DNA from: an uncultured Candidatus Saccharibacteria bacterium
Lineage (GTDB): Bacteria > Patescibacteriota > Minisyncoccia > Phycocordibacterales > UBA918
DNA: 64,000 nt
Assembly: GCA_964425625.1 (NCBI GenBank)
Contig: CAYRMI010000001.1
Span: 866 to 64,865, forward strand
Direction of reading: 5' to 3'
Shown here: piece after piece, positions 6,285 to 40,559 of the stretch
How positions within the stretch are numbered: position 1 is the stretch's first letter
How the letters are laid out: every line of letters begins with the position of its first letter
The notes under the pieces: model-generated
The model's database searches: none
What the model was told of the DNA's origin: nothing
Seen by the model: the letters and a program-made list of their open reading frames with translations, nothing else
Position numbers and translations under genes: made by a program

Positions 6285-8231
6285 TTAACTTAAGGTCGCT
6301 TTAATTCTTCTTACTCCAGAAGAAGATGATTCTTCCTTGATTATTTTGAAAGTACCCTTAATATCTTCAAGTTTTGTTACGTGAGGGCCGCCGCAAAGCT
6401 CCTTAGAGAAGATGGTTCCATCATTTCCGGTCATTATGTAGACCTTTACTTCATCTGGATAACGATCCCAGAAGCTGGCCTCTATACTACTATCGGCCTG
6501 AGCCTTTTCTTTGGGCATGATTTCAATTGTCACTTGACCGCCAATTTTGATTGCATTATTTACATAAGTCTCGACTTTATCTAGCACTTCTCGAGTTATT
6601 TTTTCTGGGTGAGTAAAGTCATAGCGAAGTCGCTCGTTAGTTATATTTGAACCAGCTTGATGGACATGGCTACCAAGTTCTTTTTGTAGGCCAGCTAGCA
6701 TCAGGTGGGTAGCTGTATGAAGTTCGATTACTTTTTCTGAATTGTCAGCCAGACCTCCTTTAAACTTTTGTTCCGCGCCCGCTCTGGAAGTTGCTTTGTG
6801 TTGCTCCATAAGGGTTTCAAAGTCCTTTCTTTCCACAATCAAGCCTTTCTCTGCAGCAATCTCTTCAGTTAGTTCTATAGGAAAACCATAAGTTGTATAG
6901 AGGTCAAATGCATTTTTTGCACTAATAGCTTGTTTGGTAATAGGAGGGATTGACTTATCAATCACTTTTTTCCCGTCCTCTACCTTACTAGTTACATGGA
7001 TTTGCAAAGAAATTTTGTTAAATTGTCTCAGTCCAGCTTCGAGAGTCTTGCGGAATTGCTCTTCTTCGTGGGCGATTGCTTCTTTGATTACTGACTTCCT
7101 TTCAAGTAAAACTGGATAATGAGTGGCGTAAGTATCAATCACGCTCGAAGCTAACTCAGAAAATTTACCAGCTGGTATAGCTAGTTTGTCAGCATAACGA
7201 ACAGCTCGTCGCAGGAGTCGTCTTACAAAATAATCTTGATCAGTATTGCCAGGTAAAACACCATCACTAATTAAAAACACTGCCCCACGAATATGATCAG
7301 TTATAACTCTAAAGGCCACTAAATCATCTGTGTATTTCTTATGTGAAAGCTCTTCAATCTGCTCAATCACCTGCCATAATAAATCTACTTTAAAGACATC
7401 AGGAGTCCCTAATTTGGCTGCTGCGATACGTTCCAGTCCTCCACCAAAGTCAACATTACTTTGTGGTAGCTTGGTAAATGAACCATCTGGTTGTTTGATG
7501 TATTCAATAAACACTGAATTCCCTATTTCAAGAAATTGACCGGAATCACTATTGGGATGAGGGGCCATCTCTTTGTATTTGGGATTGGTTGCATAGTTTG
7601 GGCCAAAATCGTAAAAGACTTCACTGTCTGGTCCGCCGATTTCGCCAACCGGCATTTTATCGGGCTGTCCAGAACGACTCCACCAGTTCTTGGCTGCGTC
7701 ATAGTAGAAAATTCTGCCTCCTTGCATACCAACTTCATAACCAGCTTCTTCACTACCAATATATACATCTTTGGCTTCTATACCACGCTCCGCAAATAAT
7801 TCTTTCCAAATAGCTACTGACTCAACGTCTCTTGGTATACAGAGAGATTCATCACCAGCAAAAACCGTTACATAGATTTTATTTGGATCTAGTCCTATTT
7901 CATCAACTAAGTAGGTAAAAAACCAGCGTAGCTGATCTTTCTTGAAATAGTCCCCCAAAGACCAATTACCAAGCATTTCAAAAAAAGTTGTGTGACGATT
8001 GTCTCCCACCTCTTCAATGTCGTTAGCTCTAAAACACTTCTGGGAATCGGCTATACGTGTACCTTTTGGGTGTTTCTCCCCCATTAAATATGGGATCAAA
8101 GGTTGCATACCGCTACCGGTAAAAAGTGTAGTCGGATCGTTTTCTGGCACAAGGGCAGAAGAAGGCACGATAGCGTGGCTATTTTTCGCCATAAAAGCTA
8201 AATATTTCTCTCGCACTTCATTACCACTCAT
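6285..8231 (-). CDS. alaS: alanine--tRNA ligase, short form lacking the C-terminal C-Ala domain
   Basis: 648 aa; class II AlaRS catalytic core (FTGSGMQP, KCFRANDIEEVG.N.RHTTFFEMLGNWS), editing-domain zinc motifs (HTATHLM, CGGPHV); about 200 aa shorter than canonical AlaRS. Confidence 0.85.
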   Translation of the reverse strand: MSGNEVREKYLAFMAKNSHAIVPSSALVPENDPTTLFTGSGMQPLIPYLMGEKHPKGTRIADSQKCFRANDIEEVGDNRHTTFFEMLGNWSLGDYFKKDQLRWFFTYLVDEIGLDPNKIYVTVFAGDESLCIPRDVESVAIWKELFAERGIEAKDVYIGSEEAGYEVGMQGGRIFYYDAAKNWWSRSGQPDKMPVGEIGGPDSEVFYDFGPNYATNPKYKEMAPHPNSDSGQFLEIGNSVFIEYIKQPDGSFTKLPQSNVDFGGGLERIAAAKLGTPDVFKVDLLWQVIEQIEELSHKKYTDDLVAFRVITDHIRGAVFLISDGVLPGNTDQDYFVRRLLRRAVRYADKLAIPAGKFSELASSVIDTYATHYPVLLERKSVIKEAIAHEEEQFRKTLEAGLRQFNKISLQIHVTSKVEDGKKVIDKSIPPITKQAISAKNAFDLYTTYGFPIELTEEIAAEKGLIVERKDFETLMEQHKATSRAGAEQKFKGGLADNSEKVIELHTATHLMLAGLQKELGSHVHQAGSNITNERLRYDFTHPEKITREVLDKVETYVNNAIKIGGQVTIEIMPKEKAQADSSIEASFWDRYPDEVKVYIMTGNDGTIFSKELCGGPHVTKLEDIKGTFKIIKEESSSSGVRRIKATLS

Positions 8232-38302: not shown

Positions 38303-38311
38303 AAGATTAAT

Positions 38312-38848
38312 GACTCTAGGGAAATGATCGTGACGGTCACCAACGTATTTTATTTCGTTTCTCATAAAATACGTGATGCCACGGGACACACCTCACTCGC
38401 CTACTGCATCGTTCCGGCGGCTCGATTCCCACGCAAGGTGCACAGGCACCTTGCTCTAGAGCCGACAAACAAAAAATGCGCCCGCAGGCGCTCTTTTCTG
38501 TACTCGTGGACTCTAGGGGAATCGGTCACTCTCGTGGATATTTCTGTTCTCCGCCGACTGGCGGATCTTATAATATCTCACTCCATCGACCCGCACTCGC
38601 GTTGGCCCTAAAGGGACCCCGAAACTGTCTTTCGATTCCCCTAGAGTCTCACAAACGGCAACGACCGTGAAGCTATCGGGGGAATCGGTCACTCTCGTGG
38701 ATATTTCTGTTCGCTTCGCTCCAAAAATACCTCACTCGCTCGACCCCCACTCGCGTCGGCCCAGAGGGGCCCCGACGCTTCGGTTCGATTCCCCTAGAGT
38801 CTCACAATGACAAACGACCACGACACTTTGTGTCGTGGTCGGTCATTG
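38312..38848. repeat. GC-rich hairpin-dense repeat locus 1: three diverged units (38312..38433; 38506..38653; 38678..38806), each bounded by inverted partial copies of the tRNA-Ala(GGC) 3' end, plus conserved hairpins and an internal terminator
   Basis: Copies of the tRNA 3' end in tRNA orientation: GTGGACTCTAGGGGAATCG at 38506..38524, shorter copies at 38312..38321 and 38678..38688. Inverted copies: TTCGATTCCCCTAGAGTCTCACA at 38631..38653 and 38784..38806, and GCTCGATTCCC at 38420..38430. The units align to each other and to locus 2. Confidence 0.7.
38469..38498. terminator. bidirectional intrinsic terminator inside repeat locus 1
   Basis: AAAAAA-TGCGCC-CGCA-GGCGCT-CTTTTCT; homologous in position to the terminator at 40452..40486, but with a different stem sequence. 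Confidence 0.55.
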
Positions 38849-38921
38849 TGGACTCTAGGGGAATCGAACCCCTTACCTCTTCCATGCCATGGAAGCGCTC
38901 TACCAAATGAGCTAAGAGCCC
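38849..38921 (-). tRNA. tRNA-Ala (anticodon GGC)
   Basis: Minus strand: GGGCTCT-TA-GCTC-ATTTGGT-AGAGC-G-CTTCC-ATGGCAT-GGAAG-AGGTA-AGGGG-TTCGATT-CCCCT-AGAGTCC-A. All four arms pair; G3:U70 alanine identity pair present; CCA not encoded. Confidence 0.85.
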
Positions 38922-40054: not shown

Positions 40055-40081
40055 AAGCCACAAAGCTTTGCTTTGTGGCTT
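40055..40081 (-). terminator. 12-bp perfect hairpin between repeat locus 2 and the dehydrogenase gene
   Basis: AAGCCACAAAGC-TTTG-CTTTGTGGCTT; A/T-rich flank on the minus strand. Confidence 0.4.
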
Positions 40082-40090
40082 AACATTACT

Positions 40091-40486
40091 AGAAGATTCG
40101 GTCACGAATCACTAAGTATATTAGTTCTCCGCCAGCTGGCGGATCCGACTCCTAATTTACTAAGTGTTCTTGACCACGACTCGCCGGCCCAAAGGGTCCC
40201 CGGCTCCGTCTTTCGAATCTTCTCTGGTCGCAAAACGGTAAAGACCGTAAACACTTTCGTGTTTACGGTCTTTACCGTTTGTGGACCAGAGAATTCATCC
40301 TGACGGTCACCGACGTACTTTGCTCCAAGTTTTCGCAAAGATACGTGGTGCCGCGGGACACGCCTCGACTGTCGTACTCGCTCCGCTCCGTGCGACCTGT
40401 CTCCGGCGTTCGAATCTTCACGTAAAGTGTCTACACACTTTACTTCTGGTCCAAACAAAAAACCGCTAAAGCGGTTTTTTGTTTTG
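40091..40486. repeat. GC-rich hairpin-dense repeat locus 2: two units homologous to locus 1 (40091..40229 and 40281..40419), a 22-bp perfect hairpin (40233..40280), a short hairpin (40422..40443) and a terminator (40452..40486)
   Basis: Unit ends are inverted partial copies of the adjacent tRNA-Ala(UGC) 3' end (AGAAGATTCG at 40091 and GTGGACCAGAGAA at 40281, against TTCGAATCTTCTCTGGTC at 40212..40229 and TTCGAATCTTC at 40409..40419). Unit bodies align with locus 1 (TTCTCCGCC-AGCT-GGCGGATC vs TTCTCCGCC-GACT-GGCGGATC; TGACGGTCACC-GACGTA...GGGACACGCCTC vs TGACGGTCACC-AACGTA...GGGACACACCTC). Confidence 0.7.
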
Positions 40487-40559
40487 TGGACCAGAGAAGA
40501 TTCGAACTCCCTGCCTCCTCAGTGCAAATGAGGCGCTCTACCAAGTGAGCTACTGGCCC
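40487..40559 (-). tRNA. tRNA-Ala (anticodon UGC)
   Basis: Minus strand: GGGCCAG-TA-GCTC-ACTTGGT-AGAGC-G-CCTCA-TTTGCAC-TGAGG-AGGCA-GGGAG-TTCGAAT-CTTCT-CTGGTCC-A. G3:U70 present; T-stem contains two G:U pairs; CCA not encoded; intrinsic terminator immediately 3' on the minus strand. Confidence 0.8.

Follow-up and report, generated by a model that had tools for sequence, protein, structure and literature searches.

Geneless units with tRNA-matched ends behind tRNA genes of Candidatus Saccharibacteria

Two tRNA-Ala genes in a 64,000-nt stretch of DNA from an uncultured Candidatus Saccharibacteria bacterium (contig CAYRMI010000001.1 of assembly GCA_964425625.1, positions 866 to 64,865; the whole stretch is referred to here as the window) are followed by arrays of small, geneless, hairpin-prone units whose ends are a direct and an inverted copy of the 3' end of the tRNA gene behind which they lie. 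Homologous units were identified in more than 12 assemblies that are unrelated and stem from different projects, where the scaffold is constant and the ends change with the neighbouring tRNA. Tentatively, and with rather less than even confidence, we favour the reading that the units are small integrated non-autonomous recombination modules, which would enter at the tRNA T loop and fold in the manner of integron attC sites or the attP site of CTX phage. In the following, X designates the last ~20 nt of the tRNA gene together with a few trailer bases, X' the reverse complement of X, alpha and beta the two types of unit, T1 the terminator hairpin next to the tRNA, and H1 and H2 hairpins within alpha.

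Unit arrays behind two tRNA-Ala genes

The first locus occupies the spacer behind tRNA-Ala(GGC), and the second, behind tRNA-Ala(UGC), spans 40055-40485. Their components are listed below in window coordinates.

38848-38921, minus strand: tRNA-Ala(GGC), host of locus 1 (ARAGORN; Rfam tRNA model, 63.2 bits)
38815-38841, minus strand: T1 of locus 1 (terminator scan; inverted repeats I2, I10 and I16)
38678-38806, minus strand: beta unit 1, tRNA-proximal (inverted-repeat search and profile/motif matches)
38506-38654, minus strand: beta unit 2 (inverted-repeat search and profile/motif matches)
38478-38491, both strands: bidirectional terminator hairpin between beta unit 2 and alpha (terminator scan)
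38312-38463, minus strand: alpha unit of locus 1 (nhmmer, E=1e-40)
40486-40559, minus strand: tRNA-Ala(UGC), host of locus 2 (ARAGORN; Rfam)
40457-40480, no strand assigned: T1 hairpin of locus 2, AAAAAACCGCTAAAGCGGTTTTTT (inverted repeats I9 and I12)
40281-40456, minus strand: alpha unit of locus 2 (nhmmer, E=5e-42; inverted-repeat search)
40233-40280, no strand assigned: long hairpin between alpha and beta of locus 2 (inverted repeat I1)
40091-40232, minus strand: beta unit of locus 2 (profile, E=9e-36; inverted repeat I5)
40055-40081, minus strand (the tRNA strand): strong terminator closing locus 2 (terminator scan)

Read on the tRNA strand, locus 1 runs from the tRNA gene through T1, the two beta units, the bidirectional terminator and the alpha unit to the stop codon of a convergent phosphoglucomutase/phosphomannomutase (PGM) gene. 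T1 lies at the centre of a near-perfect palindrome of ~89 nt (38782-38870) composed of the tRNA 3' end, T1 itself and X', which gave a MIR5070-like long-hairpin pseudo-match in Rfam (35 bits against a threshold of 100). In beta unit 1, X' (38784-38806) is 100% complementary to the tRNA end over 20 nt, GGTCAC lies at 38687-38692 and the direct copy X is shortened to GGGGAATCG (38679-38687). Beta unit 2 combines an X' at 38631-38653 and a core hairpin, TCTCCGCCGACTGGCGGA, with GGTCAC at 38524-38529 and a direct copy X at 38506-38524 that equals the tRNA gene end at 19 of 19 positions. The alpha unit is the most decayed copy; on the plus strand it presents X (38312-38325), GTGACGGTCACC (38330-38341) and H1 (38343-38374) in its left part, TCCGGCG (38413-38419) and the T-arm part of X' (38420-38430, GCTCGATTCCC) in its right part, and H2 (38434-38453) and the acceptor part of X' (38456-38463, CTAGAGCC) at the far end. 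The tRNA-Ala(GGC) gene encodes C74 only, not CCA. CCA is encoded by the tRNA gene in just one of the examined loci, the tRNA-Ala(UGC) gene of L068, which reads ...GGTCCACCA; elsewhere the discriminator is usually followed by CA (window 38848-38850 and 40486-40488).

Much of this locus had been described in an earlier, sequence-only reading of the stretch, and the repeats bracketed by tRNA ends that it reported are real. The 16-mer GACTCTAGGGGAATCG occurs four times in the window, always within 38509-38866, on the plus strand at 38509 and 38851 (the tRNA gene itself) and on the minus strand at 38633 and 38786, against 0.04 copies expected by chance with two mismatches allowed; none of 100 shuffles reached four. 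The arms recovered by the inverted-repeat search in this locus (I2, I4, I6 and I7) are 16-20 nt long and 100% complementary. The spacer (38303-38847) is indeed G+C-rich, at 53% versus 41% for the window, and the terminator at 38478-38491 scores on both strands as proposed, with the stronger T-run on the tRNA strand. GGTCAC, which that reading had placed after the direct copy, is present in every unit of both loci; it directly abuts the direct tRNA-end copy in beta and lies 5-10 nt away from it in alpha. Between 38200 and 40700 of the window this hexamer has exactly five copies, one per unit, starting at 38335, 38524 and 38687 in locus 1 and at 40100 and 40305 in locus 2. Two claims stood in part. 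The three units described as related do belong to one superfamily, but they are of two types, the alpha core of the first differing from the beta cores of the other two; and the terminal inverted copies are uninterrupted in the beta units, whereas the first unit does not end at 38433, its X' being split and running to 38463. The statement that the spacer holds no credible open reading frame (ORF) was borne out because no frame stays open across copies: ORFs of 59-118 aa overlap the units of the spacer (59-127 aa for the units in general) and a 98-aa gene has been called in locus L056, yet the frame that is open in copies with H1 of type B is broken in those with types A and C. A protein-coding reading was rejected on these grounds.

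Locus 2 is ordered T1, alpha, long hairpin, beta and terminator on the tRNA strand. The cores of its units are homologous to those of locus 1, and their ends match tRNA-Ala(UGC), not tRNA-Ala(GGC). T1 of this locus has the look of a bidirectional terminator, but is absent from the output of the terminator scan. The alpha unit consists of X (40281-40300) and TGACGGTCACC (40301-40311) on the left, and of the T-arm part of X' (40408-40419), H2 (40422-40443) and the acceptor part of X' (40444-40456) on the right. The hairpin between the two units has 35-nt arms with 91% complementarity and a GAAA loop on the tRNA strand, and its stem continues into the X of alpha and the X' of beta. In the beta unit, X' (40212-40229, TTCGAATCTTCTCTGGTC) is complementary to the tRNA-Ala(UGC) end at 18 of 18 positions, GGTCAC lies at 40100-40105 and X is shortened to AGAAGATTC (40091-40099). 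A promoter-like site, TTGACT-16-TATCAT, is found at 40621-40594 near the tRNA gene, and at the other end the closing terminator precedes the promoter of a D-2-hydroxyacid dehydrogenase gene. Searches with the alpha and beta models detected no further unit copy in the window outside the two tRNA-Ala flanks.

Host-tRNA tracking, conservation and turnover

An alpha-motif scan of one genome per species returned 38 matches, five or six of which are real, the rest being mostly chance occurrences in high-G+C genomes. The real matches are three contigs of two Candidatus Saccharibacteria assemblies (L026, L030 and L031), an unclassified bacterial assembly (L025) and a Candidatus Paceibacteria contig (L027). 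A metagenome scan contributed three more loci (L048, L049 and L052), and syntenic loci (L058-L068 and L077-L089) were collected through homologues of the dehydrogenase and PGM. Units are present at five to six of the 13 tRNA loci gathered by protein synteny alone, which form a less biased sample. The sequence-only reading had suggested a search for further copies beside tRNA genes with ends matching the local tRNA, and this search was positive for eight tRNA species in other genomes. Unit ends match their own tRNA behind genes for tRNA-His (L026), tRNA-Ala(UGC) (L025 and L030), tRNA-Phe (L049), tRNA-Gly(UCC) (L052), tRNA-Ala(GGC) (L061, L080 and L082) and tRNA-Gly(CCC) (L082), as well as behind two different tRNA-Met genes (L031); a weaker beta-like unit follows tRNA-Asp in L031. 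Every copy with a neighbouring tRNA lies 3' of it, on the same strand, and between the two stands a terminator-like hairpin whose T-run varies in strength. The order tRNA-T1-alpha-hairpin-beta is common to the window, L030, L052 and L061. Solo copies without an intact adjoining tRNA, which nevertheless keep tRNA-like ends, are found in L027, L048 and L065; neither ARAGORN nor Rfam revealed a hidden tRNA beside those of L027 and L048.

The window sequence itself recurs in a contig of GCA_020049755.1 and in two Logan contigs of SRR13355622, and these same-organism contigs are 100% identical to it over the units bar a 2-nt hairpin indel. Logan contig L001 ends at window position 38545 and L057 starts at 40523, inside or next to units; with short-read contigs breaking in this way, the repeats are probably a reason why assemblies of these bacteria are interrupted at tRNA genes. 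In the NCBI assembly contig L059, a run of N (1452-1551) masks part of the spacer behind tRNA-Ala(GGC).

On the tRNA strand, the first half of alpha consists of X'a (the complement of the acceptor 3' strand and trailer), AG, H2 (8-9 bp), CGT and X't (the complement of the T-stem 3' strand and T loop), and its second half of CGCCGGAGCGATGTGAG, a variable hairpin, ACGAGTGAGGCGTGTCCCGCGGCACC, upper H1, GGTGACCGTCAGGA and X. Beta comprises an unbroken X', CCGGAGC, a G+C hairpin, GAGTGAG or GAGTAC, a long A+T-rich hairpin, GTGACC and X, and is devoid of H2. Because alpha and beta have CCGGAGC, CGAGTGAGG and GTGACC in common, and because hybrid units joining an alpha left end to a beta right end occur in L080 and L082, the two types are taken as subfamilies of a single modular superfamily. 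An apparent kinship of CGAGTGAGG to the N-terminal coding region of serine recombinases extends over a few bases only and was judged a coincidence. In many units, the A+T-rich hairpins are capped on the sense strand by a module TATGAGC-(GGAG/GAAG/TTG)-CGAAAT(A), examples being window 38712-38722, L052 6105-6120 and L061 11285-11300. GCGAAGC forms an unusually stable DNA mini-hairpin; the tandem G-A pairs of the capping module could alternatively be an RNA motif.

The ends of the units follow the host tRNA base by base. The AG-H2-CGT segment was cut out before alpha X' was matched to the tRNA, as ungapped matching understates alpha X' owing to the H2 split. Excising these 25 nt restores the exact tRNA 3' end in L026, L030, L031 and L049, and in the UGC copy of the window bar one deletion, and the restored X' includes 3-8 trailer nt in the His, Ala-UGC, Met and Phe copies. 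The break made by H2 falls at T-stem position 64/65 throughout, the Phe copy alone giving 63/64, within a run of C that leaves the exact point ambiguous. For X, scores are 8-19 against the own tRNA and 6-10 against other tRNAs. The X of alpha is faithful from about nt 60/61 to the gene end, its T-loop part being replaced by CGAWT or TCATY, and the X of beta is faithful from C56, inside the T loop; direct copies of this extent are the classical identity block of T-loop attachment sites. X' follows the tRNA more closely than do X and the trailer arms of the palindrome. In the beta unit of L052, X' and X share an identical deviation from the tRNA, and pairing itself therefore appears to be maintained. 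All of the 11 aligned alpha copies and all beta copies have a single orientation relative to the tRNA, and an invertible DNA switch was rejected for this reason; a retrovirus-like primer-binding site, or capture of a mature tRNA, was likewise rejected because X and X' carry genomic trailer bases and not CCA.

Across the 11 alpha copies, 44 columns are invariant, these core positions being common to Saccharibacteria and a Paceibacteria contig, and hairpins of variable length are inserted at fixed positions. In the alpha consensus fold of 46 pairs, 94.3% of pair-by-sequence cells pair, compared with 84.1% in shuffles. Covariation, which the sequence-only reading had also proposed to assess, was detected: 22 pairs show two-sided changes versus 9.9 in shuffles, and 3-9 do so when the partner column is slid by 1-3 positions. 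Support is best for H2 and the upper end of H1, and the helix surrounding the variable region covaries as well; L061 swaps ACGTA/TACGT for GCTAG/CTAGC. The consensus energies of the two strands are -44.5 and -45.5 kcal/mol, and each strand's own prediction favours itself. For the 27 pairs predicted on both strands, 279 of 297 cells are Watson-Crick, and so strong a preference for Watson-Crick pairs would suit folded single-stranded DNA no less than RNA. A helix at columns 60-66/133-138 is predicted for the tRNA strand only and depends on G-U pairs, while one variable hairpin, that of the Ala-UGC copies, by eye forms U-G when read on the opposite strand but C-A when read on the tRNA strand. Taken together with the terminator-like sites below, the evidence leans weakly towards the tRNA strand, provided that the units are RNA.

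The terminator scan placed T-run terminator-like sites on the tRNA strand, bracketing the units. No promoter of their own was found for the units, promoter-like sites being no commoner than in shuffles. The predicted fold of a transcript ending at T1 is the tRNA cloverleaf. With read-through into X', the predicted minimum free energy is ~38-40 kcal/mol lower, and the T arm and acceptor 3' strand are captured in a ~40-bp hairpin. The invariable position of a terminator between tRNA and X' may be understood because read-through would trap the tRNA 3' half, and T1 is predicted to protect the tRNA from refolding with X'. In a transcript that includes the whole of alpha, the tRNA 5' acceptor strand is predicted to pair with the distal X, which in this model is the topology of an insertion within the T loop.

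Units are gained and lost among relatives. Where the PGM of a contig belongs to the same 90%-identity protein cluster, the spacer is also G+C-rich but of another sequence, and contains no unit. Among relatives at ~70-75% dehydrogenase identity, L058 and L068 have no unit at tRNA-Ala(UGC), and L061, L080 and L082 carry other units. Behind tRNA-Ala(GGC), L058-L060 present a diverged X' followed by a small basic ORF (by eye, a possible 47-aa, very basic ORF, MAMAKKSKMKRKFESKLIRISDHANRAYRSWLRKQTRRRVVYAYLV, at L058 4015-4140, also in L059 and L060), and L063 and L068 a large serine-recombinase island. The serine-recombinase genes directly follow the tRNA gene (L063 1838-3469, minus strand; L068 4349-4768, plus strand), and the same flank therefore also lands conventional islands; the product in L068 has a Resolvase domain by Pfam, that of L063 is a 543-aa ORF recognised by eye only, whose 3' end overlaps the last ~60 nt of the tRNA gene. 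Another kind of G+C-rich non-coding stretch, ~200-300 nt long, lies behind tRNA-Ala(GGC) in L083 (3040-3240), L086 (5470-5670) and L068 (4130-4240); it is free of units, contains motifs such as GCCCGCGCC...GGCGCGGGC and does not match the alpha or beta models.

Units are also duplicated and mosaic. In L031, a tandem duplication repeats exactly every 255 bp; L049 and L031 have additional partial units, and the window has a beta-beta-alpha array. The His copies of L026 and L048 are alike at their left end and differ in H1 type, a mix that points to recombination between units. Near-identical cores lie beside different tRNAs in one genome (Ala in L030, Met in L031), and decayed copies are represented by the locus 1 alpha of the window, a beta remnant in L025 and L065. 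Directly after the tandem alpha array of L031, between tRNA-Met and tRNA-Asp, is a free-standing ORF of the LAGLIDADG homing-endonuclease type (6686-7378, plus strand; Pfam LAGLIDADG_3, E=4e-10), which may be a coincidence or a candidate nuclease acting at unit sites.

Comparison with known systems

The units share features with miniature inverted-repeat transposable elements (MITEs), integron attC sites, IS200/IS605 derivatives, bridge RNAs and ordinary integration scars, and fail the defining tests of each. With Rfam release 15, only tRNAs reached the gathering score in the window and 10 related loci, and the covariance models assigned the unit to no family either at that score or at E<=10, where nothing but the MIR5070 pseudo-match was returned for the units and nothing for L027 and L048. 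The searched literature contains no description of a comparable element or RNA family. The sequence-only reading was right in holding the inverted copies to be more than ordinary integrase scars and in finding no described family to fit them; as to its suggestion of a MITE-like element, the units are not a classical MITE, since the terminal repeats vary with the host tRNA and the copies are confined to tRNA 3' flanks. Of the recombinase genes that it had proposed to look for, none is present in the 64-kb window; in the relatives L063 and L068, a serine-recombinase gene lies at tRNA-Ala(GGC).

Like attL/attR scars and CIMEs (integrase-less, cis-mobilisable elements that grow by tandem accretion), the units have a direct tRNA 3' repeat starting from the T loop, leave the tRNA intact and form arrays, and recombinase-bearing islands of the attL/attR kind use the same tRNA flank in relatives of the window. 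The direct tRNA 3' repeat that integration leaves at both borders was found, at 19 of 19 positions at 38506-38524 and also at the His, Phe, Gly and Met loci. No integrase or cargo genes, or remnants of them, were detected between the repeats, there being no conserved ORF and no recombinase domain in the 64 kb. Unlike such scars, the units are only 130-260 nt long and geneless, carry an exact inverted copy of the tRNA end and extend one core family over at least eight tRNA species.

Integron attC sites, geneless attC clusters and CTX attP resemble the units as imperfect palindromes of 60-150 nt with pairing ends, in which structure is kept over sequence, in the uniform orientation of arrays beside a fixed site, and in the imitation of a double-stranded site by a folded single strand. 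In contrast to attC, the units lack RYYYAAC/GTTRRRY: their ends read ...ATTCGAAC / GTTCGAAT..., with C as the fourth base and a non-purine as the first base of the left box (by eye, no pattern scan). They also come without cassette ORFs or an integron integrase in the window, only hairpins lie between them, the fixed site is a tRNA gene and the stems copy the tRNA end.

MITEs, Correia elements, REP/BIME and RPE are, like the units, small, hairpin-prone and present in several copies per genome, with possible effects on termination or RNA processing, and the terminal inverted repeats of the units (16-20 bp) are of MITE kind. In MITEs, however, these repeats are constant for the family and shared with a parent insertion sequence, and the insertion sites are dispersed and flanked by short target-site duplications, whereas the terminal repeats of the units equal the local tRNA end; the units occur in one orientation and in tRNA 3' flanks only, no parent insertion sequence is known and no transposase was found in the window. 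The palindromes of IS200/IS605 include similar subterminal hairpins, have no terminal inverted repeats and insert 3' of a fixed target of 4-5 nt; in the units, H1 and H2 differ from each other, terminal inverted repeats of 16-20 nt are present and the target is ~20 nt of tRNA. With regard to the bridge or seek RNAs of IS110, no DEDD recombinase gene was found in the window or beside other unit copies.

Signals for tRNA-like processing are known from plant mitochondrial t-elements, the mascRNA of MALAT1 and tRNA-snoRNA dicistrons. As in t-elements, a helix resembling the acceptor and T stems and lying next to a tRNA could be a substrate of RNase P or RNase Z, and, read on the tRNA strand, the 3' strand of alpha is continuous and its 5' strand broken by one arm, as in a tRNA. 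The alpha helices are ~8-10 bp and 5-9 bp long, lengths compatible with a 7-bp acceptor stem on a 5-bp T stem, with H2 leaving the 5' strand, and the Rfam tRNA model does not match the units. They differ from t-elements in having no T loop, its bases being paired or replaced, in a fully Watson-Crick acceptor, in which the G3-U70 pair of tRNA-Ala is lost, and in the unbranched form of beta. Downstream of E. coli tyrT there are reportedly 178-bp repeats, each starting with the last 19 nt of tRNA-Tyr, which are similarly in tandem behind a tRNA with a direct copy of its 3' end; unlike the units, they have no inverted copies and are confined to a single locus. A remnant of a group I intron was also rejected, because the tRNA introns of Patescibacteria are inserted at anticodon-loop position 35/36 (as reported in a published paper) and not in the T loop, and no Rfam intron model matched.

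Candidate explanations and significance

According to the reading as integrated recombination modules, a module would begin, on the tRNA strand, with a replacement tRNA 3' end (X) and its trailer, T1 and an exact X', and would continue through a folded core (CCGGAGC, CGAGTGAGG, long hairpin, GTGACC) to the displaced original tRNA 3' end, the distal X, which begins in the T loop. Crossover within the T loop would leave the tRNA intact and supplied with a terminator, with the old 3' end at the far side, and repeated entry at one site would build arrays. X' would let one strand fold, X-T1-X' or X'-core-X then imitating, in double-stranded form, the attachment site in the tRNA gene; a recombinase encoded elsewhere could therefore act on the module while it is a folded single strand. 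Each lineage would be tied to one tRNA species because its X' must pair with the tRNA-derived X, and cores may be homogenised or shuffled between co-resident modules by recombination. Whereas the anatomy, the match of the ends to the host tRNA, the conservation, covariation and mosaicism and the gain and loss among relatives were observed, we infer the T-loop integration, the single-strand folding and the trans-acting recombinase. With this reading, the terminator and the fixed orientation fall into place, as do arrays, turnover, mosaics and solo copies.

Several observations weigh against it. Protein domain searches detected no recombinase, transposase or reverse transcriptase in the 64-kb window, and no protein consistently adjoins the units across other loci. 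Neither an excised or circular form nor a pair of empty and filled alleles was seen, the same-species contigs being equal to the window. Pattern scans of viral contigs gave no unit copy, only eight chance matches in coding regions of high-G+C phages, and a phage origin was dropped. No known recombination site predicts that H2 should always interrupt the T stem at 64/65 or that the linkers AG and CGT should be conserved, and the near-identical cores of L030 and L031 require the extra assumption of recombination between modules. The conservation of ~44 core positions across class-level divergence would fit a functional RNA as well, and the preponderance of G-U over A-C on the tRNA strand among the 27 shared pairs (11 versus 2) is a weak hint of selection at the RNA level.

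These last points belong to the best surviving alternative, which we consider rather unlikely: the units would be structured small RNAs belonging to the tRNA operon, and would arise when transcription of the tRNA strand continues past T1. The helix closed by X' and X would mimic an acceptor/T-stem minihelix of the host tRNA, with H2 in the place from which the D and anticodon arms branch off the 5' strand; cleavage by RNase P, RNase Z or RNase III would release the units and the core would be the working part, for instance a protein-binding site, or else X' would act as antisense to the tRNA 3' end. Such a role would suit the invariant positions together with the covariation of H1, H2 and the variable-region helix, as well as hairpins of variable length at fixed positions, which are common in structured RNAs. 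The strand signals agree in part: the T-run terminator-like sites that bracket the units are all on the tRNA strand, the inter-unit hairpins show their GAAA loops there, and the same strand has the G-U surplus and the helix at 60-66/133-138, yet both strands fold equally well, the Ala-UGC variable hairpin leans by eye to the opposite one and the G-U fraction is low for an RNA family. The frequency of units in very compact genomes, at the five to six of 13 synteny-gathered loci, and the deviation of the L052 beta that is matched in X' and X also speak for a function as RNA. Against transcription stand the terminator-like hairpin between tRNA and unit at every examined locus, the absence of a detected promoter and the predicted trapping of the tRNA 3' half in a read-through RNA. 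Gain and loss of units between close relatives is likewise unfavourable, and a small RNA leaves unexplained why the ends exactly copy the local tRNA, including trailer bases.

A further candidate, which we regard as improbable, is a self-targeting guide. Here the unit would encode an RNA or form a folded strand, and its X'a-H2-X't segment would pair with the tRNA gene 3' end and direct a recombinase or nuclease to it, X being the target copy left after insertion, by analogy with IS110 bridge RNAs and the exon-binding sites of group II introns. For eight tRNAs, a two-part segment on either side of a conserved hairpin is perfectly complementary to the adjoining tRNA, on a scaffold that does not change; X' departs less from the tRNA sequence than do X and the trailer arms, and nearly identical scaffolds lie beside different tRNAs within one genome. 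However, no candidate enzyme gene was found in the window or beside other copies, known guide systems keep the guide inside the element that encodes the enzyme, and beta has no H2.

It is very improbable, in our estimate, that the units are neutral debris, that is, functionless scars of repeated island integration and excision, with palindromes made by fold-back or template-switch synthesis and local gene conversion. Direct tRNA 3'-end repeats are what integration ordinarily leaves behind, the tRNA-Ala(GGC) flank is also where the serine-recombinase islands of L063 and L068 lie, some copies are decayed (the alpha of locus 1, the L025 beta remnant, L065) and long palindromes centred on terminator loops could come from fold-back synthesis. 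This account has to contend with a core of ~44 positions and covarying hairpins kept across class-level divergence, and with the absence of cargo genes or integrase remnants between the repeats. It is also at odds with the presence of H2 at the same tRNA position in every alpha, where correction of the palindrome against the tRNA arm would erase it, and with the imperfect trailer arms beside a perfect X', the reverse of homogenisation spreading from the centre. Inverted chimeras of assembly or amplification can practically be dismissed, for although some amplification methods are known to create palindromic junctions, the same sequence is present in independent assemblies (GCA_020049755.1 and the SRR13355622 Logan contigs) and homologues occur in more than 12 unrelated ones.

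More broadly, the units may represent a previously unrecognised class of elements in the ultra-small genomes of Patescibacteria, with recognition arms templated by the local tRNA 3' end, or kept in exact complementarity to it, and one constant scaffold re-addressed to many tRNAs, either as a recombination module folded from a single strand or as a tRNA-end-guided RNA; we hold this to be possible but doubtful. The tracking of eight tRNA species base by base by one scaffold makes the question directly testable. In practical terms, the units probably explain frequent contig breaks beside tRNA genes, L001 and L057 ending inside or next to them, and provide an annotation marker for G+C-rich spacers that otherwise appear 'empty'. 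If they are mobile, they would constitute a new way for very small geneless DNA modules to land at tRNA genes by means of a self-complementary copy of the site, and would point to a Patescibacteria recombinase that reads structure and not sequence. If they are RNA, Saccharibacteria would gain their first conserved small-RNA family, a 2022 transcriptome preprint having reported no validated small RNAs for the model strain TM7x; such a family would be coupled to individual tRNAs and would suggest a control or quality check of the tRNA 3' end.

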